From a virus (Duplodnaviria; Heunggongvirae; Uroviricota; Caudoviricetes), in IMG/VR virus record IMGVR_UViG_2896607866_000004, positions 1 through 40,991 of that record: DNA of 40,991 nt. One strand, 5' to 3'. Of this stretch, positions 894 to 35,870 are shown piece by piece. The position numbers and the translations under genes were made by a program. The number at the start of each line of letters is the position of its first letter. The stretch's first letter is position 1. The notes beneath the pieces were generated by a model. The model was not told the origin of the DNA and did no database searches. It saw only the letters and a program-made list of their open reading frames with translations.

Positions 894-2180
894 TTACCCC
901 GCTTTCTTATGGGGCATGCATGGGACACTTTCAGATAGTCTTCTGTTAAGAAGTTCTATCTGTTCGTGATTGTTGTCTTTCATCCATGCTCCGTAAACAT
1001 TGAATACCATTTGTGCGTTTGTGTGGCCCATCTGGCTTGCGATAAAACTAGGATTAGCTCCTGCGGCAAGTGACCAGCATGCATAGGTATGCCTGGATTG
1101 ATACGATTTTCTGTGTCTCAGACCTGCGCGTTTTAAGATACTTGTCCATGACTCCCTGATGGAGTCAACCTTATAGTGCGGTCCGGAAAACTGCCGCTGT
1201 TTTATTACCTGAGGACTAAAAACAAAAGTGCATTTATGCACAGCAGTTCTCCCATATTCCCTCTGCTTTACCTCTACAGAATGTTGCTTTCCAAGCATAG
1301 TCATTTCTGCCTGGCTTTTAAGAGCATCAATAGCTGGTTGAACCAGATGAATTGTCCTTCCGGTGCCAGCATCGGTTTTTGGTGGAGTGAATTCGCCAAG
1401 TTTTGTATAATTCCTACGGATGGTTATAGTCCTTGCTTTAAGGTCGATATCTTCCCATGCCAGCGATACCAACTCCCCGTGACGAATACCCGTGTATACA
1501 GCGAGAATCCACAGGTTTTTTGTTTGTTGATGACGGCAAGCCTCAATAAAACGAATAAATTCGTCACGGGTGAGTGGATCTGGTTTTACCTTGGACTTTT
1601 TTAAGGGGGCCAGACCGTTAAATGGGTTTCCTGAGGTATAACCATTATCTGTTGCAAATTGAAACATTCCAGCTATGGTTGTCATATAGTAGTTTACCGT
1701 GACCACTGAGCGCCCTTTTATGGAAGAAGTCTTTCCATTAGAAAGCTTTTGGTAACCGGTCAACAAATCTCTCCTTACGAAAAGTAAATCCTCTTTTGTT
1801 ATGGATGAAACCAGTTTTTTTTCACCTAACATTGGTAACATGTTTTTAATTACTGACTGGTAACGGTTAAGTGCATTCGCACAAATCTCAATTTTCTTAA
1901 GGTCCAACCATTTTTCCGAAAGTGCCTTAACGGTTATCTCTCTTTTTCCCAGACCAAAGTGTTTCAGGTTAGGGGAATTAGGGAACTGCGCGGCGTAGTC
2001 GAAACTCCCCATTCTGATTGCAAAACAAACGGAAGTGCGAAGTTCACCAGCGATCTTCCGGTTTTTGGCTGTGTCAGGAACACCGAGGTTTTCTCTGACA
2101 CGTTTGCCGTTATAGTGAAACCATATGCGTAGTGATCCGCCATGGTTTTCAACGCCTGTCGGGTATGATGCGTTACTCAT
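894..2180 (-). CDS. int: phage integrase, tyrosine recombinase (428 aa)
   Basis: Long ORF at the prophage edge facing the chromosome. C-terminal region has the tyrosine-recombinase pattern (…HGELVSLAWEDIDL…, …RHTYACWSLAAGANPSFIASQMGHT…). Confidence 0.9.
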   Translation of the reverse strand: MSNASYPTGVENHGGSLRIWFHYNGKRVRENLGVPDTAKNRKIAGELRTSVCFAIRMGSFDYAAQFPNSPNLKHFGLGKREITVKALSEKWLDLKKIEICANALNRYQSVIKNMLPMLGEKKLVSSITKEDLLFVRRDLLTGYQKLSNGKTSSIKGRSVVTVNYYMTTIAGMFQFATDNGYTSGNPFNGLAPLKKSKVKPDPLTRDEFIRFIEACRHQQTKNLWILAVYTGIRHGELVSLAWEDIDLKARTITIRRNYTKLGEFTPPKTDAGTGRTIHLVQPAIDALKSQAEMTMLGKQHSVEVKQREYGRTAVHKCTFVFSPQVIKQRQFSGPHYKVDSIRESWTSILKRAGLRHRKSYQSRHTYACWSLAAGANPSFIASQMGHTNAQMVFNVYGAWMKDNNHEQIELLNRRLSESVPCMPHKKAG

Positions 2181-6579: not shown

Positions 6580-7118
6580 TTGTTATTTCCCGTATGCTTT
6601 ACGCAGAAATAAGCAGGCAATATGCATGTAATTTTCACCGTATTGTGCAATAAGGCAGGCGGTCTTGTGTGATGCCATATTCTTTATTAAAGTCATAATA
6701 AAGCCTCCTGTGGATTAAGGTTGTAACAATCCCCGGTGATAAAACCGCAATAAACGTTCAGGGCATATTTGTTGTTATTGCGCTAATTCTTTTTCGGCAG
6801 CAGCTTTTGAATACTCACATGCAAAGTCCAGAATATCGCTGCCAAGTGCTTTCGTTACGAGGTTACTGGACATATGTAATACCTGTGTTGCATGCAATAA
6901 ATGATAAACATTTACCGCAAATGAATCAGGCTCCAGACAAATGCCTTCGTAATTATCTTGCTGTGAGGTTGTTTCTGTCATTGCTCCTGAAGTGCATGCG
7001 AGCCTGTTTTTGACAATTCTCTTTCCTCTAATCACTATATCGGCAACATCTATTTGAGGTAGCCTGAGTTTAACGGACACTCCTTCCTGAAATAGAATGG
7101 CATCAGAAGGAGCTAATA

Positions 7119-7421
7119 ATGAGCAGAAAAACCCAACGTTACTCTAAAGAGTTCAAAGCCGAAGCTGTCAGAACGGTTCTTGAAAATCAACTTTCGATCA
7201 GTGAAGGCGCTTCCCGATTATCTCTTCCTGAAGGCACTTTAGGACAATGGGTTACCGCCGCCAGAAAAGGGCTCGGTACTCCTGGTTCCCGCACGGTGGC
7301 TGAACTGGAATCTGAAATTCTGCAACTGCGTAAGGCGTTAAATGAAGCTCGCCTTGAGCGCGATATATTAAAAAAAGCAACAGCGTATTTTGCACAGGAG
7401 TCGCTGAAAAATACGCGTTAA
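7119..7421 (+). CDS. IS3-family transposase OrfA (100 aa)
   Basis: MSRKTQRYSKEFKAEAVR… HTH/leucine-zipper-type OrfA; slippery site near its 3' end. Confidence 0.85.
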   Translation: MSRKTQRYSKEFKAEAVRTVLENQLSISEGASRLSLPEGTLGQWVTAARKGLGTPGSRTVAELESEILQLRKALNEARLERDILKKATAYFAQESLKNTR

Positions 7422-7456
7422 TCGAACAATGGCGACAACAATTTCCCATTGAAGCG

Positions 7457-8275
7457 ATGTGTCAGGTATTTGGTGTATCCAGGAGCGGTTATTACAACTG
7501 GGTACAGCATGAACCCTCAGACAGAAAACAAAGTGATGAGCGGCTAAAACTGGAGATTAAGGTGGCACATATCCGCACTCGCGAAACATATGGAACCCGG
7601 CGGCTCCAGACGGAGCTGGCAGAGAATGGCATCATCGTTGGTCGTGACCGACTGGCACGTCTTCGTAAGGAGCTAAGGCTACGCTGTAAGCAGAAACGCA
7701 AGTTCAGAGCGACTACGAACCCGAACCACAATCTGCCAGTTGCGCCAAATCTGCTGAACCAGACGTTCGCTCCTACAGCACCAAATCAGGTCTGGGTGGC
7801 GGACCTGACGTATGTTGCCACACAGGAGGGATGGTTGTACCTCGCTGGCATCAAAGATGTTTATACGTGCGAAATTGTCGGCTACGCCATGGGAGAGCGC
7901 ATGACAAAAGAGCTGACAGGTAAAGCCCTGTTTATGGCGCTCAGGAGCCAGCGCCCACCTGCCGGGCTAATCCACCACTCTGATCGAGGTTCACAGTACT
8001 GCGCATACGATTACCGGGTCATACAGGAGCAGTTTGGTCTGAAAACATCAATGTCGCGTAAAGGTAACTGTTACGACAACGCTCCGATGGAAAGCTTCTG
8101 GGGAACGCTGAAAAATGAGAGCCTGAGCCATTATCGTTTTAATAACCGGGATGAAGCCATCTCAGTAATACGGGAATACATTGAGATTTTCTACAATCGT
8201 CAGCGTCGTCACTCTCGTCTGGGGAATATCTCCCCGGCAGCCTTCAGGGAAAAATATCATCAGATGGCTGCTTAA
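7457..8275 (+). CDS. IS3-family transposase OrfB (DDE catalytic domain), expressed as OrfAB by -1 frameshift
   Basis: 272-aa ORF in the -1 frame relative to OrfA; 100% identical to the OrfB of copy 2. Confidence 0.85.
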   Translation: MCQVFGVSRSGYYNWVQHEPSDRKQSDERLKLEIKVAHIRTRETYGTRRLQTELAENGIIVGRDRLARLRKELRLRCKQKRKFRATTNPNHNLPVAPNLLNQTFAPTAPNQVWVADLTYVATQEGWLYLAGIKDVYTCEIVGYAMGERMTKELTGKALFMALRSQRPPAGLIHHSDRGSQYCAYDYRVIQEQFGLKTSMSRKGNCYDNAPMESFWGTLKNESLSHYRFNNRDEAISVIREYIEIFYNRQRRHSRLGNISPAAFREKYHQMAA

Positions 8276-8534
8276 AAAAGAACAAATGGTAGTGTCCGCT
8301 ATTGCCAGTACACCTCAATTGCCTTTACAACCTCCGGGAGAAGTTCCTGGTTTGTATAATCAAAGTTATCAACATGGAGAACAGTTATGTTTTCGAACTT
8401 TTTCATGGCTTCCTCAGCTGACTTATATGTTCTGCTATATAGCGAGTCTCAGAAGTGTTTTCATATTGAGACTGTTTCCGCAATGATTGATAAAAATGTT
8501 CGCATGTACCTTGAGGGGCGAAGCGGCGATTTTG

Positions 8535-10802: not shown

Positions 10803-11516
10803 ATGGCAGTGAACACCGCAATTTTTAACGACAAAGTATCCATGACCAGCGTTGAAATCGCAGAGCTGGTTGGAAGTCAACACGGCAATGTCAGAATATC
10901 AATAGAGCGTCTGGCAAAACGCGGGGTGATTCAACTTCCTGCAATGCAAAAAGTTGAGAACGAACAATCATTTAGCCAAAACAAATTCACAAACGCATAT
11001 ATTTTCGAAGGCGAACAAGGCAAACGCGACAGCATCATTGTCGTCGCACAACTTTGCCCGGAATTCACTGCCCGCCTGGTAGATCGTTGGCGCGAACTGG
11101 AAGAGCAGGTGCGCAAACCAATGAGCGAAATCGAAATGGTTGCCGCGATGGCTCTTGAAGCCGTTCGTCAGCAAAAACGCCTCGACAAGATGGAAGAAAA
11201 AGTCAGTCACGTTACTGAAACTGTCGAACAAATCAAAAGAGGCACCATCCGCGATGGTTATGCAGGCTACCGTCAGCTGGTGGCGGAAACGGGTATGTCA
11301 GATGCGAAATGCCGCAATCTGGTGAACATCTATCAAATTCCAACTGATACTCACGAATTTCTTACTCCGGACGGATTGTTGTCACGCCGCGCAATTGTTG
11401 CAGTGGAACCGTTTATGGCTGCTTTCCATCGTATGATGAGCGAAGCGGAACCGAGAGGAACTCGTTGGTATCACCCGAAAATGGGGCTGTTCCAGGCGCT
11501 GGGCTGGCAGGGGTGA
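10803..11516 (+). CDS. antirepressor-like protein, Rha/AntA-type N-terminal domain plus KilAC (ANT) C-terminal domain
   Basis: N-terminus …SMTSVEIAELVGSQHGNVRISIERLAKRG…; C-terminus near-identical to that of 3557..4306. Start ambiguous (ATG 10803 abuts the SD; GTG 10809 has better spacing). Confidence 0.7.
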   Translation: MAVNTAIFNDKVSMTSVEIAELVGSQHGNVRISIERLAKRGVIQLPAMQKVENEQSFSQNKFTNAYIFEGEQGKRDSIIVVAQLCPEFTARLVDRWRELEEQVRKPMSEIEMVAAMALEAVRQQKRLDKMEEKVSHVTETVEQIKRGTIRDGYAGYRQLVAETGMSDAKCRNLVNIYQIPTDTHEFLTPDGLLSRRAIVAVEPFMAAFHRMMSEAEPRGTRWYHPKMGLFQALGWQG

Positions 11517-11536
11517 CGATGTTTACGGGTAATTTA

Positions 11537-11710
11537 TGCAAGTCCTCAATCGCTGGTTCCGTGACGGAAGGGGGCGTCGTGTTCACGTTATACGCTGGGA
11601 GCCTGAAACACAGCGGGTTATTTATCTGCGTGATGGTTATCCATATGAATGTTTCAGCCCGTTGTGGTTGTTCAGGCGTGATTTTGTTGAGTGCGAAGCG
11701 CCGCCATAAT
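11537..11710 (+). CDS. hypothetical small protein (57 aa)
   Basis: ATG 21 bp after the upstream stop; MQVLNRWFRDGRGRRVHVIRWEPETQRVIYLRDGYPYECFSPLWLFRRDFVECEAPP. Weak SD; under the ORF-track cutoff. Confidence 0.25.
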
Positions 11711-11730
11711 AACGGCGCGATAATGGAAAT

Positions 11731-12039
11731 TTACACGAAGCGGATCTGGAGTTTTTTCCCTGTTGCGCGTGCAAATTTTTTCAGTGTGGCAAATGATGGT
11801 CCGCTGACACCTGAGGCAAGATTGCTTTCCATTCTGGTGATGGCGGTTGCTTTGGTACCCATGCGTTCAGCAACTTCAGCCTGGGTGAGACCAGCTTCTT
11901 TGCGTGCGGCCAGCATTTCATCAAGCAGTGCGAACTCGTCGGCGATGGCGTCGTATTCTGCTTTAAAAGCCGGGTCATCCATCCATTTAGCTGCCATTTC
12001 ATCGTGTGTCATGATTGGTGGGTTACGTTTACCAGTCAT
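11731..12039 (-). CDS. HigA-like antitoxin (XRE-family HTH, 102 aa)
   Basis: HTH …LTQAEVAERMGTKATAITRMESNLASG…; AGGAGGT SD; start overlaps the 3' end of the upstream toxin gene by 11 nt. Confidence 0.7.
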   Translation of the reverse strand: MTGKRNPPIMTHDEMAAKWMDDPAFKAEYDAIADEFALLDEMLAARKEAGLTQAEVAERMGTKATAITRMESNLASGVSGPSFATLKKFARATGKKLQIRFV

Positions 12040-12358
12040 GCTTAACCTCCTTCATTCTGGTTTCAGCTTTTTTACGCTCAGCTGGTGGAGTTTTTTGAGT
12101 TTTCTTGATGAAGCTGTGCAGCATGATGATGCGCTTCCCTGTCAGTGTGCAGTAAAAAACGCGGGCAATGCCATCGCTGCCTTTAATCCGAAGCTCAAAA
12201 AGCCCATCACCAAAGGCGCTGGTGTGAGGTTCTCCGAGATTGCTGCCGTATACCTTCATGCGTTCAACAAGATGCTGGTATCTGGCACGCATACTCAATG
12301 GAAGCTGATCGACCTCCAGTCGGACCTCTTCACTGTAGTATTCGATAGTGTAGTTCAT
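12029..12358 (-). CDS. HigB-like toxin (RelE/ParE superfamily, Gp49-type), about 109 aa
   Basis: …YYSEEVRLEVDQLPLSMRARYQHLVERMKVYGSNLGEPHTSAFGDGLFELRIKGSDGIARVFYCTLTGKRIIMLHSFIKKTQKTP… resembles phage Gp49/HigB-type toxins; toxin precedes antitoxin. Start placed at internal ATG 12358 (ORF track uses TTG 12394). Confidence 0.6.
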   Translation of the reverse strand: MNYTIEYYSEEVRLEVDQLPLSMRARYQHLVERMKVYGSNLGEPHTSAFGDGLFELRIKGSDGIARVFYCTLTGKRIIMLHSFIKKTQKTPPAERKKAETRMKEVKHDW

Positions 12359-12395
12359 ACAGCAAAACATAACAAAATCGTTATATCTGCACAAT

Positions 12396-12460
12396 ATATT
12401 GATTCTGCAATTTCGGGACGTTACACTGTCTCTGCACCTTATAAAGCGGGTGCCGGGATT
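12396..12460 (+). repeat. 65-bp direct repeat, copy 1 (leader/5' region of Rha-like gene 1)
   Basis: ATATTGATTCTGCAATTTCGGGACGTTACACTGTCTCTGCACCTTATAAAGCGGGTGCCGGGATT; 64/65 identical to 13052..13116. Confidence 0.8.
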
Positions 12461-12676
12461 TGCACCCCGGAATTGTCAACGGCGATATACGACGCGCCAG
12501 CGTCTTTTTTATCGTCCGCGCTCACGCACGCCAGAATTATGGTGGGCTGGGCAGGGGAGCCGAAAGGCTCGCCGGTCTCCGTTGACGCCGGTAGTGCAAA
12601 CCCTGTTCAGTCCGCCACCAGCGAGATTTGCACCTCCGGTGGTGGAAGTTTTCCACAGTCAACGGAGGCTGCCATC

Positions 12677-13039
12677 ATGGCTACAGTCCCAACCCACTCA
12701 TTCCTCAAAATTGAGACCGTCAACGGCAAGGCCGTTATTTTCTCTTTGCATGTGGCCTGCCACTTTAAGCGCATGCACCAGAACATCGTAGACAAAATCG
12801 AGTATCTGAACTGCTCGCGCGAATTTTTTACCCGCAATTTCATACCGGGTACTTACCACATCTATGACGACTCTCTGCGTGGTTATTACATCACCCTTGA
12901 TGGTCTGATGCTGCTTCAGCTTGGGTTAAGTCTGCGCACAATGCGGTACTACGAGAGTTGCATTGAAGCGTTCCATGAGGCTGAAACCGTCCAGGTGCAT
13001 TCCGCTTTCCGTCGTCATCAACGGGAGGTGCACCTATGA
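12677..13039 (+). CDS. Rha-like phage regulatory protein 1 (120 aa from ATG 12677; may extend upstream)
   Basis: GGAGG SD 8 nt before ATG 12677; MATVPTHSFLKIETVNGKAVIFSLHVACHFKRMHQNIVDKIEYLNCSREFF… resembles the Rha N-terminal domain. The frame is open far upstream (artefactual 524-aa ORF) but has no canonical start near the conserved leader. Confidence 0.5.
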   Translation: MATVPTHSFLKIETVNGKAVIFSLHVACHFKRMHQNIVDKIEYLNCSREFFTRNFIPGTYHIYDDSLRGYYITLDGLMLLQLGLSLRTMRYYESCIEAFHEAETVQVHSAFRRHQREVHL

Positions 13040-13896
13040 TCCGCTACCTGAATATTGATTCTGCAATTTCGGGACGTTACACTGTCTCCGCACCTTATAA
13101 AGCGGGTGCCGGGATTGGCGTCCTGAAATTCAATATAGAGCATAACCGCGCTCATGCGGTTTTTTCGTGTCATGAGCATTGCTACGCCCAAATTATGGTG
13201 GGGCGTGCAGGGGCATCGCAAGATGCGCCGGGTTCTATGTTGACCGGTTACGCCAACCCTGTACGTCTCACCACCTCTGTGATTGGCGTCCCATGTGATG
13301 AGTTCTTTGAATTCAACATAGGGGCTGTCACCATGACTACTCTCCCAACCCTCTCTCAACCTGAAATTGCCATCGTTGATGGTCAGGCTGTTACTTCATC
13401 CCTGGCTGTTGCTAACTTCTTCTCTAAACGTCATGACGATGTTCTGAAAAAGATCCGCATTTTGGATTGTTCTCCAGAGTTTTGTGCCCGCAATTTTGCG
13501 GAGACATCAATTTTGGTACGCCAGCCCAACGGCGGTACTCGCAAACTTCCCTGCTACCAAATCACCCGCGACGGCTTCGCCTTCCTTGCTATGGGCTTCA
13601 CTGGTAAACGTGCCGCCCGGTTCAGAGAGGCATACATCAATGCCTTTAACCAGATGGAGAGGAGCTTATCAGGAGCTGGTGCGGCTGACATGTCATCTGT
13701 CGCACAAAACGCCAGAGGCGTATACCTGCATTTGCGTGAAATCCATCAAATCTGGACAAGCCAGCTTTACCCAATGCTTAAGGCCGTTGAATCTCCGCTG
13801 GCTGGCAAACTGTACGACCGTGTAGGTGATGCTGTTTTTGGTGCTGCACTTGTTGATTCCAGGCTGAATGGTTCTGACAAGGAGGTGCGCCCATGA
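13036..13896 (+). CDS. Rha-like phage regulatory protein 2 (286 aa from ATG 13036; alternative start ATG 13333 giving 187 aa)
   Basis: GGAGGTG SD 5 nt before ATG 13036, which overlaps the upstream TGA. Rha motif …AIVDGQAVTSSLAVANFFSKRHDDVLKKIRILDCSPEFCARNF…YQITRDGFAFLAMGFTGKRAARFREAYINAFNQME… begins at residue 100. Confidence 0.6.
   Translation: MIRYLNIDSAISGRYTVSAPYKAGAGIGVLKFNIEHNRAHAVFSCHEHCYAQIMVGRAGASQDAPGSMLTGYANPVRLTTSVIGVPCDEFFEFNIGAVTMTTLPTLSQPEIAIVDGQAVTSSLAVANFFSKRHDDVLKKIRILDCSPEFCARNFAETSILVRQPNGGTRKLPCYQITRDGFAFLAMGFTGKRAARFREAYINAFNQMERSLSGAGAADMSSVAQNARGVYLHLREIHQIWTSQLYPMLKAVESPLAGKLYDRVGDAVFGAALVDSRLNGSDKEVRP
13052..13116 (+). repeat. 65-bp direct repeat, copy 2 (5' region of Rha-like gene 2)
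   Basis: 64/65 identical to 12396..12460; the single difference (TCT/TCC) is synonymous in the open frame. Confidence 0.8.
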
Positions 13897-25549: not shown

Positions 25550-25936
25550 ATGTTTCTGAAACAGGATACGTTTAATTATGAAAAACAGTCCGTGGTGCTC
25601 AGTGAGCTGTCCGGGCTGCAGAGAATTGAATATCTGACGTTTGTTCAGCAGCGAACGGCAAAGTTTGATGCACAGGAGGGAGAACTGCCGGAGGCTGAAC
25701 GACAGATTGCTTTTCTGCGTATGGGAATGGATATCAATGCCTGGCTGGTTTCCCGCTCACTGTGGAATGCTGAGCAGTCTCAGGATGTTGAGACGCTTTG
25801 CGCATCCATTATGACAACATGGTCGTATGATGCGCTGGGCGCGGGGGCAGAGAGGGTTCTGTCGCTGAGCGGTATGGGGACCATTGAGAATGCCGGGGAT
25901 GATGATCATGAGGCGCTGACGCCGGAAAAGTCCTGA
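25550..25936 (+). CDS. G: tail assembly chaperone G
   Basis: MFLKQDTFNYEKQSVVLSELSGLQRIEYL… parallels lambda gpG; GGAG SD. Confidence 0.8.
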   Translation: MFLKQDTFNYEKQSVVLSELSGLQRIEYLTFVQQRTAKFDAQEGELPEAERQIAFLRMGMDINAWLVSRSLWNAEQSQDVETLCASIMTTWSYDALGAGAERVLSLSGMGTIENAGDDDHEALTPEKS

Positions 25937-25944
25937 CGCGGGAA

Positions 25945-26274
25945 ATGCAGTTTGTCATGCGGCTTGCCCGGGAGTTCCGGCGGGCAGACTGGCGGCGGAT
26001 GCTGTCGGAAATGTCGGCCACTGAGCTTGGTGAGTGGGGCGATTATTTCCGGATGCAGAGCTTCAGTGATGTGTGGATGGATGCGCAGTTTGCCTCGCTG
26101 AAGGCATTGATCGTGAGAATGGTGTCCGGCAGCAGTGATGCTGCGGTGGCTGATTTCAGCCTTTTACCGGAAGAGAACGGGATACCGGAGCGAACGGACG
26201 AAGAACTGATGCATCTTGGGGAAGGTATTTCCGGAGGTGTGCGTTATGGACCAGATAGCCAACCTGGTCATTGA
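25945..26274 (+). CDS. T: tail assembly chaperone T segment, expected to be made as a G-T fusion by -1 frameshifting
   Basis: ORF in the -1 frame overlapping the 3' end of G; the -1 frame opens after a stop at 25909-25911, so the shift must occur within 25912-25933 (GGAAAAG at 25924-25930). Confidence 0.65.
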   Translation: MQFVMRLAREFRRADWRRMLSEMSATELGEWGDYFRMQSFSDVWMDAQFASLKALIVRMVSGSSDAAVADFSLLPEENGIPERTDEELMHLGEGISGGVRYGPDSQPGH

Positions 26275-29200
26275 TTTGGGGATTGATGCGGCAGAGTTTA
26301 AAAATGAAATTCCCCGTATCAAAAACCTTCTGAATGGTGCAGCCGGTGATGCAGAACGGTCTTCTGCCCGTATGCAGCGTTTTATGGAGCGTCAGACTCA
26401 GGCGGCCCGGCAGACAATGCAGGCGGCTTCTTCGGCTGCAACAGCAGCATCAGCCCATGCGCAGACGGTGGAGAAGAATGCACGGGCTCATGAACGCATG
26501 GCCCGTGAGGTGGAACAAACCCGTCTGCGCGTGGATGCCCTGAATCAGAAAATGCGCGAGGAACAGGCGCAGGCCAGGGCACTGGCGGAGGCGCAGGATA
26601 AAGCGGCTGCCGCCTTTTATCGCCAGATTGACAGTGTGAAACAGGCCGGTGCGGGGCTTCAGGAATTACAGCGTATTCAGCAGCAGATCCGACAGGCCAG
26701 AAACAGTGGCGGGGTTGGTCAGCAGGATTATCTGGCGCTGATTTCGGAGATCACGGCGAAAACCCGTGCCCTGACGCAGGCAGAGGAACAGGCCACCCGG
26801 CAGAAAGCGGCGTTTATCCGCCAGCTTAAAGAGCAGGCAACCCGCCAGAATCTGTCGTCTTCTGAGTTGCTTCGCGCCAGGGCGGCTCAGCTGGGGGTAA
26901 GCAGTGCTGCAGAAGTGTATATCCGCAAAATGGAGCGGGCAGGAAAAGCCACACATTCGCTGGGGCTGAAAAGTGCGGCAGCCCGGCGGGAGCTGGGGGT
27001 GTTAATCAGTCAGATGGCGCGCGGCAATTTTGGTGCGCTGAGGGGATCCGGGATAACGCTGGCTAACCGTGCCGGATGGACAGGCGCACTGATGTCGCCG
27101 AAAGGCATGATGACTGGCGGCGTTATTGGCGGACTTGTCGCGGCGGTCCTGGGTCTGGGTAAAGCCTGGCATGACGGCCGGAAGGAGGGCGAGGAATTTA
27201 ACCGTCAGCTGGCGCTGACGGGACATTATGCCGGTGTCACTGTCGGGCAGTTGTGGAAACTCAGCCGGGCCATATCCGGGAATGGTATCACGCAACATGC
27301 GGCAGCCGGTGCGCTGGCACAGGTGGTGGGCAGTGGGGCATTTCATGGAAACGATATTGGTATGGTGGCGAAAGCTGCCGCACAGATGGAGCGATCGGTT
27401 GGCCAGTCGGTCAGCGATACCATAAATCAGTTTAAGCGGCTGAAGGATGATCCTGTAAATGCCGCGAAGGCGCTGGACAATGCGCTGCATTTTTTGACTG
27501 CCACTCAGCTTGAGCAGATACGCGTCCTTGGGGAGCAGGGGCGGTCCAGTGATGCGGCCCGGATCGCCATGTCTGCGCTGGCAGAGGAAACCGGTAAACG
27601 CACATCTGATATTGATAATAATCTCAATGCGCTGGGTAGTACGCTGCAAACCTTGTCTGACTGGTGGAAGCAGTTCTGGGATGCGGCCATGAATATTGGT
27701 CGTGAAGACTCGCTGGATGCGCAGATTGATGCGTTACAGGAAAAAATTCAGCGCGCGAAAAAATATCCGTGGACAAACGCCTCCACACAGGTGGAGTACG
27801 ATCAGCAGCGTCTTAACGATCTTCAGGAGAAAAAACGCCGGAAGGATTTGCAGGATGCAAAAGCGCAGGCAGAACGGAATTACCAGGAGCAACAGAAACG
27901 CCGGAATGCTGAAAATGCCGCGCTGAACCGGATGAATGAAACGGGAGCTGCACGACATCAGCGGGAAATTGCGCGTATTAATGCCATGCAGTACGCCGAC
28001 CAGGCTGTCAGGGATGCGGCGATACAGCGTGAAAATGAACGTTACGAAAAAGCCATTAAGAAAAATACACGGGCAACCCGTAATGATGAGGCCACCCGGT
28101 TATTGCTGCAGTACAGTCAGCAGCAGGCACAGGTGGAAGGGCAGATTGCTGCTGCCAGACAGTCAGCAGGCATTGCCACTGAAAGGATGACTGAAGCGCA
28201 TAAACAGCTTCTGGCCCTGCAGCAGCGCATCAGCGACCTGGACGGGAAAAAGCTGACGGCAGATGAAAAGAGTGTGCTGGCCCGTAAGAATGAGCTGATT
28301 CAGGCGCTGACGCTGCTGGATGTGAAACAGCAGGAGCTGCAGAAACAGACAGCGCTTAACGACCTGAGAAAAAAAACGGTTCAGCTGACCAGCCAGCTGG
28401 CAGACAAAGAACGTGCACTGCGTGAGCAGCACAATCTGGATATTGTCACTGCAGGTATGGGGGATAAGCAGCGGCAGCGCTACCAGGCACAGTTGCGCAT
28501 CCGGCAGGAATACCGGCAACAGTTGCAACAGCTTGAGAATGACAGTCGCCAGAAAGGCACTTACGGGACGGAGGACTACCAGAGGGCTGAGGAGGTGCTG
28601 AAGGGGAGCCTGAAGCGACAACTGAATGAAAACAAACGCTACTGGCAGGAACTGGAAGTGGCGCAGGGTGACTGGAAAAACGGTGCCATGCGGGCGTTTC
28701 AGAATTTTACGGCGGATGCGGATAATGCGGCGGGAACGGCAGAACAGATGTTTACAGTGGCATTCAGCAGTGCCGGTAATGCACTGGCGACATTCTGTAC
28801 CACCGGTAAGCTGAATTTTAAATCCTTCACCTCTTCCCTGTTGTCAGATATGGCCAGAATTATGGCACAGATGGCCATGATGCAGGCGGTAAAGGGCGTC
28901 GGTTCTTTATTCGGCTTCACGACTAATGCTGATGGCGGTGTTTACCAGTCTGCTGATTTGAGTCGCTACAGTGGCACGGTGGTTAACCGTCCGACGTTTT
29001 TTGCTTTTGCAAAAGGCGCGGGTGTGATGGGGGAAGCGGGACCTGAAGCCATTCTGCCACTGCGTCGCGGTGCTGATGGTAAGCTGGGGGTTGTGGCGGA
29101 TACTGGTGGTTCAGGCATGGTGATGTTTGCCCCGCAGTACAACATTGAGATCAATAACGACGGCACGAACGGGCAGATAGGTCCGGCTGCCCTGAAGGTG

Positions 29201-29287
29201 GTTTATGACCTCGGGAAAAAAGCGGCCGCGGACTTTATGCAACAGCAGGCCCGTGATGGTGGCCGGTTAAGTGGAGCATACCGGTAA
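26246..29287 (+). CDS. H: tail tape measure protein (lambda H-like)
   Basis: 1013-aa coiled-coil-rich protein from ATG 26246 (GGAGG SD); C-terminus …NNDGTNGQIGPAALKVVYDLGKKAA… parallels lambda gpH. Confidence 0.9.
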   Translation: MDQIANLVIDLGIDAAEFKNEIPRIKNLLNGAAGDAERSSARMQRFMERQTQAARQTMQAASSAATAASAHAQTVEKNARAHERMAREVEQTRLRVDALNQKMREEQAQARALAEAQDKAAAAFYRQIDSVKQAGAGLQELQRIQQQIRQARNSGGVGQQDYLALISEITAKTRALTQAEEQATRQKAAFIRQLKEQATRQNLSSSELLRARAAQLGVSSAAEVYIRKMERAGKATHSLGLKSAAARRELGVLISQMARGNFGALRGSGITLANRAGWTGALMSPKGMMTGGVIGGLVAAVLGLGKAWHDGRKEGEEFNRQLALTGHYAGVTVGQLWKLSRAISGNGITQHAAAGALAQVVGSGAFHGNDIGMVAKAAAQMERSVGQSVSDTINQFKRLKDDPVNAAKALDNALHFLTATQLEQIRVLGEQGRSSDAARIAMSALAEETGKRTSDIDNNLNALGSTLQTLSDWWKQFWDAAMNIGREDSLDAQIDALQEKIQRAKKYPWTNASTQVEYDQQRLNDLQEKKRRKDLQDAKAQAERNYQEQQKRRNAENAALNRMNETGAARHQREIARINAMQYADQAVRDAAIQRENERYEKAIKKNTRATRNDEATRLLLQYSQQQAQVEGQIAAARQSAGIATERMTEAHKQLLALQQRISDLDGKKLTADEKSVLARKNELIQALTLLDVKQQELQKQTALNDLRKKTVQLTSQLADKERALREQHNLDIVTAGMGDKQRQRYQAQLRIRQEYRQQLQQLENDSRQKGTYGTEDYQRAEEVLKGSLKRQLNENKRYWQELEVAQGDWKNGAMRAFQNFTADADNAAGTAEQMFTVAFSSAGNALATFCTTGKLNFKSFTSSLLSDMARIMAQMAMMQAVKGVGSLFGFTTNADGGVYQSADLSRYSGTVVNRPTFFAFAKGAGVMGEAGPEAILPLRRGADGKLGVVADTGGSGMVMFAPQYNIEINNDGTNGQIGPAALKVVYDLGKKAAADFMQQQARDGGRLSGAYR

Positions 29288-29616
29288 TGGAGACGTTTCA
29301 CTGGAAAGTGCGCCCGGATATGAATGTGGTATCAGAGCCGAAAGTGGTGACAGTGAAGCTGGGCGATGGTTATGAACAGCGTCGTGCGGCGGGACTGAAT
29401 AACCAGTTGTCGACTTACAGCGTGACGATACGTGTTCGTAAAGGTGAACACCCATCTTTAAAAGCCTTTCTGGAACGGCACGGTGGCGTCCGCGCATTTC
29501 AGTGGACGCCACCTTATGACTGGAAACCGATCAGGGTGGTTTGTCGTAAATGGTCGGCAAGCGTGGGGGCGTTATGGGTGACTGTAACGGCCGATTTTGA
29601 ACAGGTGGTGAACTGA
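29287..29616 (+). CDS. M: minor tail protein M
   Basis: METFHWKVRPDMNVVSEPKVVTVKLGDGYEQRRAAGLN…FEQVVN parallels lambda gpM. Confidence 0.85.
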   Translation: METFHWKVRPDMNVVSEPKVVTVKLGDGYEQRRAAGLNNQLSTYSVTIRVRKGEHPSLKAFLERHGGVRAFQWTPPYDWKPIRVVCRKWSASVGALWVTVTADFEQVVN

Positions 29617-30313
29617 TGCAGGATATCCGCAGGAAACACTGAATGAATGCACCCGTGCGGAGCAGTCAGCCCGGGTGGAGCTCTGGGAAATCGATCTGAC
29701 AGAGGTCGGTGGTGAGCGTTATTTTTTCTGTAATGAGCAGAACGAAAAAGGTGAGCCGGTCACCTGGCAGGGGCGGCAGTATCAGGCATACCCCATTCAG
29801 GGGTCGGGGTTTGAACTGAACGGCAGGGGCTGTGCTGCCCGTCCGACACTGACGGTCTCTAACCTGCACGGCATGGTCACCGGTATGGCGGAAGATCTGC
29901 AGAGTCTGGTCGGCGGAACGGTGGTCAGGCGTAAGGTTTACGCCCGTTTTCTGGATGCGGTGAACTTCGTCAACGGAAACAGCGACGCCGATCCGGAACA
30001 GGAGGTGATCAGCCGCTGGCGCATCGAGCAGTGCAGCGAACTGAGCGCGGTCAGTGCCTCTTTTGTGCTGGCCACACCAACGGAGACGGATGGCGCGGTT
30101 TTCCCGGGGCGTATCATGCTGGCGAATACCTGTATGTGGACTTACCGTTCTGATGAGTGTGGTTACACGGGCAGGGCAGTGGCTGACGAGTTCGACAAAC
30201 CAACGACGGATATCCGGAAGGACAAATGCAGCAAGTGTATGCGCGGGTGTGAGTTGCGCAACAATACCGGTAATTTCGGCGGTTTCCTTTCCATCAATAA
30301 ACTTTCTCAGTAA
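29616..30313 (+). pseudogene. L: minor tail protein L with a 1-bp frameshift after codon 5
   Basis: ATG 29616 overlaps the M stop and reads MQDIRRKH-stop (29640-29642). The +1 frame continues as …QETLNECTRAEQSARVELWEIDLTEV… through a complete L-like body (NTCMWTYRSDECGYTG…FGGFLSINKLSQ). GTG 29675 could give an N-terminally shortened product. Confidence 0.6.
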
Positions 30314-30317
30314 ATCC

Positions 30318-31061
30318 ATGACACAGACAGAATCAGCGATTCTGGCGCACGCCCGGCGATGTGCGCCAGCGGAGTCGTGTGGCTTCGTGGTGAGAACGCC
30401 GGAGGGAGACAGGTATCTTCCCAGCGAGAATATCTCCGGTGAGCCGGAGGAACGGTTCCGGATGGCTCCGGAGGACTGGCTGCGGGCACAAATGCTGGGT
30501 GAGATTGTGGCGCTGGTCCACAGTCATCCCGGTGGTCTGCCCTGGCTGAGTGAGGCTGACCGGCGGCTGCAGGTGCAGAGTAATTTGCCTTGGTGGCTGG
30601 TCTGCCGGGGTGAGATTCATAAATTCCGCTGTGTGCCGCATCTCACCGGGCGGCGCTTTGAGCACGGGGTGACGGACTGTTACACGCTGTTCCGGGATGC
30701 TTATCATCTGGCGGGGATTGAGATGCCGGATTTTCATCGCGGGGATGACTGGTGGCGTAACGGTCAGAATCTCTATCTTGACAATATGGAGGTGACGGGT
30801 TTTTACCGTGTCGCACTGACAGAGGCGCAGCCGGGCGATGTGCTGCTGTGCTGTTTTGGTTCATCGGTGCCGAATCATGCCGCCATTTACTGCGGTGACG
30901 GCGGGCTGCTGCACCATATTCCTGAACAACTGAGCAAACGAGAGAGGTACACCGACAAATGGCAGCGACGCACACACTCCCTCTGGCGTCACCGGGCATG
31001 GCGCGCATCTGCCTTTACGGGGATTTACAACGATTTGGTCGCCGCATCGACCTTCGTGTGA
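30318..31061 (+). CDS. K: tail assembly protein K (NlpC/P60-type peptidase plus MPN/JAB-like domain)
   Basis: ATG 30318; HSHPGG motif (JAB/MPN-like) and Cys/His peptidase-like region; position between L and I. Confidence 0.85.
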   Translation: MTQTESAILAHARRCAPAESCGFVVRTPEGDRYLPSENISGEPEERFRMAPEDWLRAQMLGEIVALVHSHPGGLPWLSEADRRLQVQSNLPWWLVCRGEIHKFRCVPHLTGRRFEHGVTDCYTLFRDAYHLAGIEMPDFHRGDDWWRNGQNLYLDNMEVTGFYRVALTEAQPGDVLLCCFGSSVPNHAAIYCGDGGLLHHIPEQLSKRERYTDKWQRRTHSLWRHRAWRASAFTGIYNDLVAASTFV

Positions 31062-31600
31062 AAACGGGGGCTGAAGCCATCCGGGCACTGGCCACACAGC
31101 TCCCGGCGTTTCGTCAGAAACTGAGTGACGGCTGGTATCAGGTGCGCATTGCCGGGCGTGATGCAGGTGAAACCGAATTGTCTGCCCGTCTTAATGAGCC
31201 GCTGGCAAATGGTGCAGTGATCCACATAGTACCGCGTCTGGTGGGAGCTAAAAGTGGCGGTGTGTTTCAGGCGGTGCTGGGGGCGGCTGTTATGGCGGTT
31301 GCTATATGGATGCCGGGGGTAGGAATTATGGCGAGTAATCTGCTGTTTTCTCTCGGTGCCAGTATGACGCTTGGCGGTGTTGCACAGATGCTGGCACCGA
31401 AAGCCAGAACTCCCCGTACACAGACAACGGATAACGGTAAGCAGAACACGTATTTCTCGTCACTGGATAACATGGTTGCCCAGGGCAATGTTCTGCCCGT
31501 TCTGTACGGTGAAATGCGCGTGGGGTCACGTGTGGTTTCTCAGGAGATCAGCACGGCAGACGAAGGGGATGGTGGTCAGGTTGTGGTGATTGGTCGCTGA
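30959..31600 (+). CDS. I: tail assembly protein I
   Basis: Overlaps the 3' end of K as in lambda; C-terminus …TDNGKQNTYFSSLDNMVAQGNVLPVLYGEMRVGSRVVSQEISTADEGDGGQVVVIGR. Confidence 0.85.
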   Translation: MAATHTLPLASPGMARICLYGDLQRFGRRIDLRVKTGAEAIRALATQLPAFRQKLSDGWYQVRIAGRDAGETELSARLNEPLANGAVIHIVPRLVGAKSGGVFQAVLGAAVMAVAIWMPGVGIMASNLLFSLGASMTLGGVAQMLAPKARTPRTQTTDNGKQNTYFSSLDNMVAQGNVLPVLYGEMRVGSRVVSQEISTADEGDGGQVVVIGR

Positions 31601-31660
31601 TGCAAAATGTTTTATGTGAAACCGCCTGCGGGCGGTTTTGTCGTTTATGGAGCGTGAGGA

Positions 31661-34600
31661 ATGGGTAAAGGCAGCAGTAAGGGGCATACCCCGCGCGAAG
31701 CGAAGGACAACCTGAAATCCACGCAGTTGCTGAGTGTGATTGATGCCATCAGCGAAGGGCCGGTTGACGGTCCGGTGGATGGATTAAAAAGCGTGCTGCT
31801 GAACGGTACGCCGGTCCTGGACAGCGAGGGGAAGACAAACTTTTCCGGTGTTACGGTAGTGTTCCGCGCCGGCGAGCAGGAGCAGACACCGCCGGAGGGG
31901 GTTGAATCTTCCGGCTCCGAGACGGTGCTGGGTACGGAAGTGAAATACGACACGCCGATCACCCGGACCATCACGTCGGCAAACATTGATCGTCTGCGCC
32001 TGACCTTCGGTGTGCAGGCACTGGTGGAAACCACCTCAAAGGGGGACCGGAATCCGTCGGAAGTCCGCCTGCTGGTTCAGATACAGCGTAACGGTGGCTG
32101 GGTGACGGAAAAAGACATCACCATTAAGGGCAAAACCACTTCGCAGTATCTGGCCTCGGTGGTGGTGGGTAACCTGCCGCCGCGCCCGTTTAATATCCGG
32201 ATGTGCAGGATGACACCGGACAGCACCACAGACCAGCTGCAGAACAAAACGCTCTGGTCGTCGTACACCGAAATCATCGATGTGAAACAGTGCTACCCGA
32301 ACACGGCGCTGGTCGGCGTGCAGGTGGATTCAGAGCAGTTCGGTAACCAGCAGGTGAGTCGCAATTATCATCTTCGCGGGCGCATTCTGCAGGTGCCGTC
32401 GAACTATAACCCGCAGACGCGGCAATACAGCGGTATCTGGGACGGAACGCTTAAGCCAGCATACAGCAACAACATGGCCTGGTGTCTGTGGGACATGCTC
32501 ACTCATCCGCGCTACGGCATGGGGAAACGTCTTGGTGCGGCAGATGTGGACAAATGGGCGCTGTATGTCATCGGCCAGTACTGCGACCAGTCAGTGCCGG
32601 ACGGATTTGGCGGCACGGAGCCGCGCATCACCTGTAACGCTTACCTGACCACACAGCGTAAGGCGTGGGATGTTCTCAGTGATTTCTGCTCGGCGATGCG
32701 CTGTATGCCGGTATGGAACGGGCAGATGCTGACGTTCGTGCAGGACCGACCGTCGGATAAAGTGTGGACCTATAACCGCAGTAATGTGGTGATGCCGGAT
32801 GATGGCGCGCCGTTCCGCTACAGCTTCAGCGCCCTGAAGGACCGCCATAATGTCGTTGAGGTGAACTGGATTGATCCGGACAACGGTCATGAGACGGCGA
32901 CAGAGCTTGTGGAGGACACGCAGGCCATTCTCCGTTACGGTCGTAACGTCACGAAGATGGATGCCTTTGGCTGTACCAGCCGGGGACAGGCGCACCGCGC
33001 CGGGCTGTGGCTGATTAAAACGGAACTGCTGGAAACGCAGACCGTGGACTTCAGCGTCGGCGCAGAAGGGCTTCGCCATGTACCGGGTGATGTCATTGAA
33101 ATCTGCGATGATGATTATGCCGGTATCAGCACCGGTGGTCGCGTACTGGCGGTGAACAGCCAGACCCGGACGCTGACGCTCGACCGTGAAATCACGCTGC
33201 CGTCCTCCGGCACCACGCTGATAAGCCTGGTTGACGGAAGTGGCAATCCGGTCAGCGTGGAGGTCCAGTCCGTCACCGACGGCGTGAAGGTGAAAGTGAG
33301 CCGGGTTCCTGACGGCGTTGCCGGATACAGCGTGTGGGGGCTGAAGCTGCCGACGCTGCGCCAGCGCCTGTTCCGCTGCGTGAGTATCCGTGAGAACGAC
33401 GACGGCACGTATGCCATCACCGCCGTGCAGCATGTGCCGGAAAAAGAGGCCATCGTGGATAACGGGGCACACTTTGACGGTGACCGGCGCGGCACGGTGA
33501 ATGGTGTCACGCCGCCAGCGGTGCAGCATCTGACCGCCGAAGTCACCGCAGACAGCGGGGAATATCAGGTGCTGGCGCGATGGGACACGCCGAAGGTGGT
33601 GAAGGGAGTGAGCTTCCTGCTTCGCCTGACCGTGGCAGCGGACGACGGCAGTGAGCGGCTGGTCAGCACAGCCCGGACGACGGAAACCACATACCGCTTC
33701 AGGCAGCTGGCGCTGGGGAATTACAGTCTGACAGTCCGGGAGGTAAATGCCCGGGGGCAGCAGGGCGATCCGGCGTCGGTATCGTTCCGGATTGCGGCAC
33801 CGGCAGCGCCTGTCACTATTGAACTGATACCGGGGTATTTTCAGATAACGGCGGTCCCGAAACTGGCTGTATATGACCCGACGGTGCAGTTTGAGTTCTG
33901 GTTTTCGGAAAAGCGGATTGCGGATATCAGGCAGGTTGAAACCAGCGCCCGCTATCTTGGCACGGCGCTGTACTGGATAGCCGCCAGTATCAATATCAGG
34001 CCGGGCCATGATTATTATTTTTACGTTCGCAGTGTGAACACCGTTGGCAAATCGGCATTTGTGGAGGCCGTCGGTCGGGCGAGCGATGATGCGGAAGGTT
34101 ATCTGAGTTTTTATAAAGGGTTGATCAATAAAACGCATCTCGGCAAGGAGTTGTGGACGCAGATTGATAACGGTCAGCTTGCGCCGGACCTGACTGAAAT
34201 CAGGACGTCCATTACGAATGTCAGCAATGAAATCACGCAGACCGTCAATAAAAAACTGGAAAATCAGAGTGCTGCAATCCAGCAGATACAGAAAGTTCAG
34301 GTTGATACAAATAATAACCTGAACAGCATGTGGGCTGTGAAGCTGCAACAGATGAAGGACGGACGCCTTTATATTGCGGGTATCGGTGCCGGTATTGAGA
34401 ATACGCCAGCAGGAATGCAGAGTCAGGTGCTGCTGGCGGCAGACAGGATTGCGATGATTAATCCTGCGAATGGCAACACAAAGCCGATGTTTGTTGGTCA
34501 GGGCGATCAGATATTCATGAACGACGTGTTCCTGAAACGCCTGACGGCTCCGACCATTACCAGCGGCGGTAATCCTCCGGCATTTTCCCTGACACCTGGC

Positions 34601-35140
34601 GGACGGCTGACGGCGAAAAATGCCGATATCAGCGGTAACGTGAACGCGAACTCCGGGACGCTCAACAACGTCACGATTAATAAGAACTGTCGGGTTCTGG
34701 GAAAATTGTCCGCGAACCAGATTGAAGGCGATCTCGTTAAAACAGTGGGCAAACCTTTCCCACGGGACTCCCGGGCACCGGAGAGGTGGCCATCAGGGAC
34801 CATTACCGTCAGGGTTTATGACGATCAGCCGTTTGATCGGCAAATTGTTATTCCCGCGGTGGCGTTTCGCGGTGCTAAACATGAGCGGAAGAATAACAAT
34901 ATTTATTCGTCATGCTGCCTGATAGTGAAGAAAAACGGTGCTGAAATTTATAACCGAACGACCCTGGATAATACGCTGATATATACGGGTGTTATTGATA
35001 TGCCTGCCGGTCACGGTCACATGACGCTGGAGTTTTCTGTATCGGCATGGCTGGTAAATGGCTGGTATCCCACAGCAAGTATCAGCGATTTGCTGGTTGT
35101 TGTGATGAAGAAATCCACAGCAGGTATCAGTATCAGCTGA
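31661..35140 (+). CDS. J: tail tip host-specificity protein J (1159 aa)
   Basis: Size, position and N-terminus [26 protein letters not shown]… parallel lambda gpJ. Confidence 0.9.
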
Positions 35141-35207
35141 ATTTTATAACCCAGATACGGGCACCAGAAATGGTGCCTTTTTTATTGCAGAAAAGCGAGA
35201 GGTAATT

Positions 35208-35807
35208 ATGCGTAAAGTTTGTGCAGCCATTTTGTCCGCAGCCATCTGTCTGGCCGTATCCGGTGCGCCTGCATGGGCGTCTGAACATCAGTCCACGCTG
35301 AGCGCCGGGTATCTTCAGACCCATACTGATATGCCAGGCAGCGATGACCTGAAGGGCATTAACGTGAAATACCGTTATGAGTTTACGGACACGCTGGGGC
35401 TGGTGACGTCATTCAGCTATGCCAACGCTGAAGATGAGCAAAAAACGCATTACAGCGATACCCGCTGGCATGAGGATTCCGTGCGTAACCGCTGGTTCAG
35501 CGTGATGGCGGGGCCGTCTGTGCGCGTGAATGAATGGTTCAGCGCGTATGCGATGGCGGGCGTGGCTTACAGCCGTGTGTCGACCTTCTCCGGGGATTAT
35601 CTCCGCGTAACTGACAACAAGGGGAAAACGCACGATGTGCTGACCGGGAGTGATGACAACCGCCACAGCAACACGTCTCTGGCGTGGGGGGCTGGCGTGC
35701 AGTTTAACCCGACCGAATCCGTGGCCATTGACCTTGCTTATGAAGGTTCCGGCAGTGGCGACTGGCGCACTGACGGTTTCATCGTGGGTGTCGGTTATAA
35801 GTTCTGA
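35208..35807 (+). CDS. lom: Lom/Ail-family outer-membrane protein
   Basis: Signal peptide, beta-barrel-type alternating pattern, C-terminal …GVGYKF; position after J. Confidence 0.85.
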   Translation: MRKVCAAILSAAICLAVSGAPAWASEHQSTLSAGYLQTHTDMPGSDDLKGINVKYRYEFTDTLGLVTSFSYANAEDEQKTHYSDTRWHEDSVRNRWFSVMAGPSVRVNEWFSAYAMAGVAYSRVSTFSGDYLRVTDNKGKTHDVLTGSDDNRHSNTSLAWGAGVQFNPTESVAIDLAYEGSGSGDWRTDGFIVGVGYKF

Positions 35808-35833
35808 TTAGCCAGGTAACACAGTGTTATGAC

Positions 35834-35859
35834 AGCCCGCTGGTTCAGGCGGGCTTTTT
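35834..35859 (+). terminator. rho-independent terminator after lom
   Basis: AGCCCGC-TGGTTCAG-GCGGGCT hairpin followed by TTTTT. Confidence 0.55.
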
Positions 35860-35870
35860 GTGGGGTGAAT

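Follow-up and report, generated by a model that had tools for sequence, protein, structure and literature searches.

The window, which is the whole 40,991-nt stretch of DNA that was analysed, contains a lambda-type tail operon in the order Z-U-V-G-T-H-M-L-K-I-J, of which the M-L-K-I-J part is conserved. Gene L lies between M and K, and its reading frame is broken close to the start codon. The features around the M–L junction are as follows.

29287 to 29616, plus strand: tail gene M, 109 aa, intact (98% identity to M of phage mEp460 over residues 1–108; PF05939, E = 6.8e-40).
29616 to 29642, plus strand: stub ORF composed of L codons 1–5 (MQDIR), three out-of-frame codons (RKH) and TGA; its sequence is ATGCAGGATATCCGCAGGAAACACTGA, which encodes MQDIRRKH followed by the stop.
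29629, plus strand: site of the 1-nt deletion, namely the surviving G of the ancestral GG pair (alignment with relatives).
29630 to 30313, plus strand: remainder of L, codons 6–232 and the TAA stop, read in the −1 frame with respect to the ATG (tblastn, residues 5–232 in another frame).
29675 to 30313, plus strand: 212-aa ORF beginning with GTG, the first start codon in that frame, with the whole PF05100 domain inside.
30318 to 31061, plus strand: tail gene K, 247 aa, with JAB and NlpC/P60 domains, intact (protein comparison and domain search).

The stop codon of M (TGA, 29614–29616) overlaps the ATG of L (29616–29618) in an ATGA coupling. In codon 5 of L, one G of a GG pair was lost, which changed CCGGCAGG to CCGCAGG (CCGC of the window is 29627–29630). 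The frame from 29630 begins QETLNECTRAEQSARVELWE and is open until the TAA at 30311–30313. An earlier note on this DNA had proposed a frameshift at codon 5/6 of an L homologue, caused by a single base missing in a CCGC context, with the ATG that overlaps the M stop giving only MQDIRRKH. The sequence at 29616–29642 reads exactly in this way, the alignments place the lost G at that point, and full-length L is indeed no longer encoded. Gene K was called as 199 aa at some loci and 247 aa at others, and we considered whether this was a further lesion; the idea was rejected, as the DNA is identical and the difference comes from the gene callers.

When the G was conceptually re-inserted, residues 1–232 of the resulting 232-aa protein aligned with residues 1–232 of the lambda tail tip protein L (PDB 8IYK, 8iyk_L; E = 2.9e-144), and the protein matched PF05100 (Phage_tail_L) over profile positions 1–206 of 206 (E = 1.6e-96, 322 bits). 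The repaired L differs by one residue from the intact S. flexneri allele P0030. The cysteines that coordinate the [4Fe-4S] cluster in lambda gpL have been described (PMC10721106); all four are kept in the repaired protein (C173, C182, C205, and C212 in repaired numbering) and are conserved in homologues. The uninterrupted ORF from the conserved N-terminal Met that a functional gene would have is absent in L, as the stop comes after 8 codons. On these sequence features, L of the window is a pseudogene member of the lambda gpL/PF05100 family. In public databases, the 212-aa GTG ORF is entered as an ordinary "minor tail protein L" (UniRef A0A380AGE1_SHIFL, EIQ07898.1, and others), and this 212-aa entry is best read as a pseudogene fragment.

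Alignment of the junction with the three closest E. coli prophages was followed by alignment of the M–L segment with eight relatives (L001, L002, L003, L012, L016, which is the viable phage mEp460, L017, L018, and L019). The form with the extra G was present in every relative compared, and CCGCAGG was found only in the window among these. The closest relative was L001, a prophage in "E. coli" FDAARGOS_944, in which 2 of 1,027 positions differed, one of them being the indel in L. In complete E. coli records, a 70-mer spanning the site had 3,582 matches at 98.6% (one gap) and not a single one at 99% or above, which means that the deleted form is absent there. The deleted junction, searched as an exact 44-mer and then as a 23-mer, had no match in species-representative genomes, where Shigella is probably folded into E. 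coli, and an exact-pattern scan of metagenome contigs also gave no match. Because the relatives keep GG and no complete E. coli record matches at 99% or above, the deletion in L is a specific, derived, and rare lesion rather than a chance pattern.

The exact 212-aa product was looked up in public assemblies and was found in four independent NCBI assemblies (GCA_002741395.1, GCA_900457175.1, GCA_900457165.1, and GCA_000268085.1; S. flexneri). The deleted junction was present in 8 of 8 loci (L004–L011), two in each of these assemblies, which were produced with differing technologies. One of the loci (L007, CP024470.1, S. flexneri serotype 3a strain 71-2783) was 100% identical to window positions 19675–40313 (20.6 kb), and this assembly was made from PacBio reads corrected by Illumina/Pilon (PMC5754485; also PMC9455713). 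It could be asked whether the true genome has GG with an intact L, and whether the missing base is a sequencing or assembly error. The lesion is a single-base indel, the best-matching assembly, that of 71-2783, was built on PacBio reads and has draft status because of a collapsed repeat, and the locus lies within a 12.6-kb repeat that is hard to polish. However, the identical deletion was found at 8 loci in four independent assemblies, one of which was Pilon-corrected; the strains differ at other SNPs and therefore represent separate data sets; the draft assembly with L010 and L011 has the two copies on separate contigs that differ elsewhere; and a GG dinucleotide is not an error-prone homopolymer. 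An error of this kind is very unlikely in our judgement. The earlier note had left it to resequencing to show whether a further base restores the frame, and the same deletion in eight copies from four independent assemblies effectively answers this in the negative. A scan of viral contigs gave one match, L014, which we did not accept as evidence of a virion, as L014 and the S. flexneri isolate contig AKMV01000007 (L010) are both 33,182 bp and L014 is a predicted prophage.

In each of the four genomes, the lesion occurs twice, in two ipaH-linked remnants that lie 301–337 kb apart in the same orientation. The window-type remnant has a Gifsy/HK97-like head module and a 547-aa ipaH, and in the sister remnant there are FI/FII genes of the lambda type, a 583-aa ipaH, an IS110-family element (DEDD_Tnp_IS110 transposase), and a tape-measure gene with an IS4-family insertion (DDE_Tnp_1 transposase) and one nucleotide deleted. 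In another assembly, L017 is an intact counterpart of the sister prophage, with an uninterrupted tape-measure gene and an intact L. The two remnants share the following tract, inside which the L deletion lies and which ends in the conserved 3′ part of ipaH.

26348 to 38965, plus strand: near-identical tract of about 12.6 kb with the 3′ part of H, M, L, K, I, J, lom, stf, DUF4376, and the 3′ end of ipaH (window compared with L004, L006, L009, and L011).

In strain 71-2783, the two remnants had 34 differences over 24187–27793, which lay mostly before 24400 and ended, as far as SNPs are concerned, at 26345 and 26347. From 26348 to 27895, the remnants were alike except for the IS4 insertion and an indel of 1 nt at 27178, and from 27896 to 38965 there were two SNPs only. 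Over 28020–36460, all five strain-specific SNPs (28581, 31045, 32204, 33976, and 34916) were present in both copies of the strain that has them. The SNP at 33976 coincides with a split of J into products of 771 aa and 368 aa in both copies of GCA_900457165.1. This pattern suggests gene conversion or concerted evolution between resident prophages, as read from the aligned copies, and polishing of the 12.6-kb repeat could contribute. Homogenisation of the repeat during assembly polishing could partly account for the identity of the copies, given that the 71-2783 assembly is flagged as draft with a collapsed repeat; however, SNPs that distinguish the copies persist in 71-2783 and in the AKMV draft, where the copies are on separate contigs, which argues against a pure artefact.

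The state of the rest of the prophage was then assessed from the following features.

894 to 2180, minus strand: integrase of the prophage, at its left end (in L001/L015, the equivalent prophage sits between mlrA and btsS).
7055 to 8320, plus strand: second IS600 copy, simply inserted into the early region, with 3 bp (ATT) duplicated at its junctions.
20170 to 21433, minus strand: IS600 copy with no target-site duplication, replacing about 6.8 kb (junction comparison with L001).
36918 to 37354, plus strand: side tail fibre/DUF4376 region, which compared with L001 has lost 4 nt near 36918 and gained 2 nt at 37354.
38038 to 39681, minus strand: ipaH, 547 aa, with LRR and NEL E3 ligase domains, the cargo gene at the right end of the prophage (domain search).

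The IS600 copy at 20170–21433 marks a deletion, because it has no target-site duplication; the missing 6.8 kb corresponds to L001 5415–12235, and the two IS600 copies of the window differ from each other at 8 positions. The genes lost with this segment are the distal part of the endolysin gene, of which a 79-aa fragment is left, Rz, KilA-N, terS, terL, the adaptor, the portal, and codons 1–119 of the protease-capsid gene. Structural proteins from the viable phage mEp460 served as tblastn queries against the window. There was no match in the window for terS, terL, the head-tail adaptor, or the portal, and the protease-capsid fusion was matched only from residue 120 on. Single full-length matches were obtained with the decoration protein, gp07, Z, U, G, T, H, M, K, I, J, and Lom; V matched over residues 1–235 of 247, and L matched from residue 5 on in a frame other than that of the L ATG. 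H (1013 aa) and J (1159 aa) are open, and among Z to J all genes except L are open in the window copy. The integrase, a CI-like S24 repressor, and helicase/loader homologues are predicted in the window. Because the genes for lysis, terminase, adaptor, and portal are deleted together with part of the capsid gene, no particle can be packaged or released, and the prophage is unable to form particles with or without an intact L. The suggestion that loss of L probably makes the tail module non-functional was reasonable in itself, but it was too narrow and is moot in a prophage that already has no packaging, portal, or lysis genes.

Several further observations were made along the prophage. The side tail fibre and DUF4376 genes (36758–37894) have 3-nt, 4-nt, 2-nt, and 7-nt differences from L001, and stf is 367 aa in the window and 470 aa in L001. 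L001 itself (NZ_CP065613.1, labelled E. coli FDAARGOS_944) has ipaHe adjoining the prophage, and among its phage genes 8 are marked as frameshifted and 1 as containing an internal stop; L001 could come from an EIEC/Shigella-like strain, or its assembly could be rich in indel errors. Beyond ipaH, towards the right end of the window, a SAM-methyltransferase gene (39997–40665, minus strand) is flanked by Rfam matches to CssrB (chromosome-encoded Shigella sRNA B, 230 bits) at 39809–39988 and to IS009 at 40745–40948. The presence of ipaH, CssrB, and IS600 in the window fits a Shigella origin. Matches to isrK and C4-antisense RNA occur twice, at 12434–12622 and 13090–13278, 656 bp apart, and the adjacent ORFs 11465–13039 and 13036–13896 both have Ash and Rha domains, which suggests a tandem duplication of the antirepressor region. 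A tRNA cluster lies downstream of Q at 18432–18742 and contains a tRNA with a CAT anticodon, Arg-TCT, Thr-TGT, and Gly-TCC; the CAT-anticodon tRNA is assigned to Met by ARAGORN and to Ile in the L001 annotation. In the G/T tail chaperone arrangement (25920–25945), the stop of G is at 25934–25936 and the T ORF, which is in the −1 frame, runs from 25945; CGGAAAAG is the candidate slippery run, compared with GGGAAAG in lambda, and GGGAAAG is absent here.

We then considered whether L could still be made from the interrupted gene. Programmed −1 ribosomal frameshifting is used at G/T in lambdoid tail operons, and the shift that would restore full-length L is also −1, so such frameshifting or another form of recoding was weighed. 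Of the nine heptamers in the stub, not one matches the pattern X XXY YYZ, and runs of 4 or more identical bases are absent from it. No stimulatory structure was predicted, and the fold of 29600–29720 had z = −0.56, with 59 of 200 shuffles equally stable. The two-frame arrangement occurs in no relative, as all of them have L in a single frame. Programmed frameshifting was therefore rejected on the absence of a slippery heptamer, of a stimulatory structure, and of conservation, and we regard its probability as next to nothing.

A second route would be a restart of translation at GTG 29675 (or CTG 29639), giving an N-terminally truncated L that functions in tail-tip assembly, and the GTG restart was the caveat attached to the earlier note. 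The 212-codon ORF is open, the PF05100 domain lies completely inside it and scores as before (322 bits), none of the four Fe-S cysteines is lost, and GGAG is present upstream of GTG 29675. However, this GGAG is a weak Shine–Dalgarno sequence (−5.8 kcal/mol, spacing 11) compared with that of the native ATG (−10.2 kcal/mol, spacing 4), and a local hairpin is predicted in which this GGAG and the GTG are base-paired. The out-of-frame ATGs at 29643 and 29647 come directly after the stop of the stub and would capture reinitiating ribosomes. No promoter-like site was found upstream, and a promoter and terminator scan around L gave nothing above chance.

The conservation of the N-terminus also speaks against a functional truncated L. 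Residues 1–20 of L are conserved across Escherichia, Salmonella, Citrobacter, Yersinia, and Edwardsiella. In 28 aligned full-length homologues from these five genera, M1, I4, and E11 were invariant, Q2 and Q17 were at least 90% conserved, and position 21 was variable. The Met was shared by 28 of 28 homologues, and P0139 alone had four extra residues before it. The large clusters of L homologues consisted of full-length proteins of 231–232 aa, and the shorter forms were mostly single-member. In the lambda virion, residues 1–166 of gpL form the HDI beta-sandwich, which builds the last tail ring with gpJ beneath gpM (PMC10721106). AlphaFold2 was run on the 28-sequence alignment and gave a mean pLDDT of 54.8, which is too poor to judge residues 1–19; in this poor model, residues 1–15 had pLDDT below 50, which would favour a restart, and the first strand was placed at residues 20–27, which would speak against one. 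Even a working L would be no rescue for a prophage without terminase and portal. The ORF behind the restart caveat is open and carries the whole Pfam domain, but with a weak Shine–Dalgarno sequence, out-of-frame ATGs, and the conserved N-terminus lost, we consider a functional restart very unlikely. Some residual product with the whole Pfam domain and the Fe-S cysteines may be translated from the 212-aa ORF, judging from its sequence.

An independent nonsense mutation was found in a related prophage contig, L012 (4964–5662, Logan ERR5951554; 98.8% identical), in which GG is intact and CAG has become TAG at codon 17 of L, corresponding to window position 29663. Codon 17 is intact in L018 (SRR27723125), an otherwise matching contig of 11,561 bp. 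We asked whether the Z–J module could be under selection in both ipaH remnants, with L made as a 212-aa protein from GTG 29675, for example for an F-type tailocin-like particle or another role beneficial to the host. If this were true, the same early lesion in both copies and the codon-17 nonsense of L012 would reflect selection for a short L instead of drift. However, L012 was retrieved by searching for the 212-aa product, and because of this ascertainment bias, we rejected its nonsense mutation as a sign of recurrent selection for the 212-aa form. In our view, such selection is highly improbable.

We believe that the most convincing explanation, and a very probable one, is a genuine, derived 1-base deletion that made L a pseudogene in a defective ipaH lambdoid prophage, through neutral decay, and that came to lie in both remnants by gene conversion or recombination. 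The host lineage is S. flexneri, represented by the serotype 3a strain 71-2783. The change from GG to G in codon 5 turns the lambda-type tail-tip hub gene L into a pseudogene; translation from the M-coupled ATG, as read from the sequence, ends after 8 codons and yields no full-length L. The IS600-associated deletion has already removed lysis, terminase, adaptor, portal, and part of the capsid gene. Because the prophage cannot form particles anyway, the lesion in L probably represents neutral decay, in a "grounded" prophage that persists with ipaH as its cargo. The tail genes Z to J are otherwise open, which could be read as retention of the module, although low divergence from intact relatives could explain this equally well. 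The deletion probably arose a single time and is now in both ipaH remnants of each genome, and gene conversion or recombination between the two resident remnants is the most likely route.

The biological weight of this finding is small, as it adds one more inactivating lesion to a Shigella remnant that persists with an ipaH effector. Nothing here departs from known prophage decay, and L is an ordinary pseudogene. If reads confirm it, the presence in both remnants of the L lesion, and of the J nonsense in another strain, would make a neat, small-scale case of inactivating mutations being spread by concerted evolution. For complementation among the defective prophages of this lineage, neither of these two remnants would supply L.

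Compared with lambda gpL (PDB 8IYK/8IYL/8K35/8XCG; PF05100), L of the window is alike in its 232 aa after repair, its gene order, and its four Fe-S cysteines. It differs in about 24 substitutions and in the frame broken at codon 5/6, with the native start yielding only an 8-residue stub. The ATGA overlap of M with L is common to the window and the closest E. coli prophages, whereas M and L are 9 nt apart in mEp460. The viable phages mEp460 and cdtI have the same type of head-tail module and are colinear with the window from protease-capsid to lom, with 81–100% protein identity, but the window has no terS, terL, adaptor, portal, or N-terminus of protease-capsid, and its L is frameshifted. The stf frameshift of "wild-type" lambda (PaPa) is similar in that both are single-base changes that inactivate a tail gene and are carried stably in a lineage. 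L is required for assembly of the tail initiator in lambda, and stf is dispensable for plaque formation, unlike L. The prophage is typical of the defective ("grounded") lambdoid prophages of Shigella and EIEC that carry chromosomal ipaH, with an E3-ligase gene at the right end, IS insertions, deletions, and multiple pseudogenes. There is no essential difference from these prophages, and what is specific to the window is the codon-5 deletion in L and its presence in two remnants.
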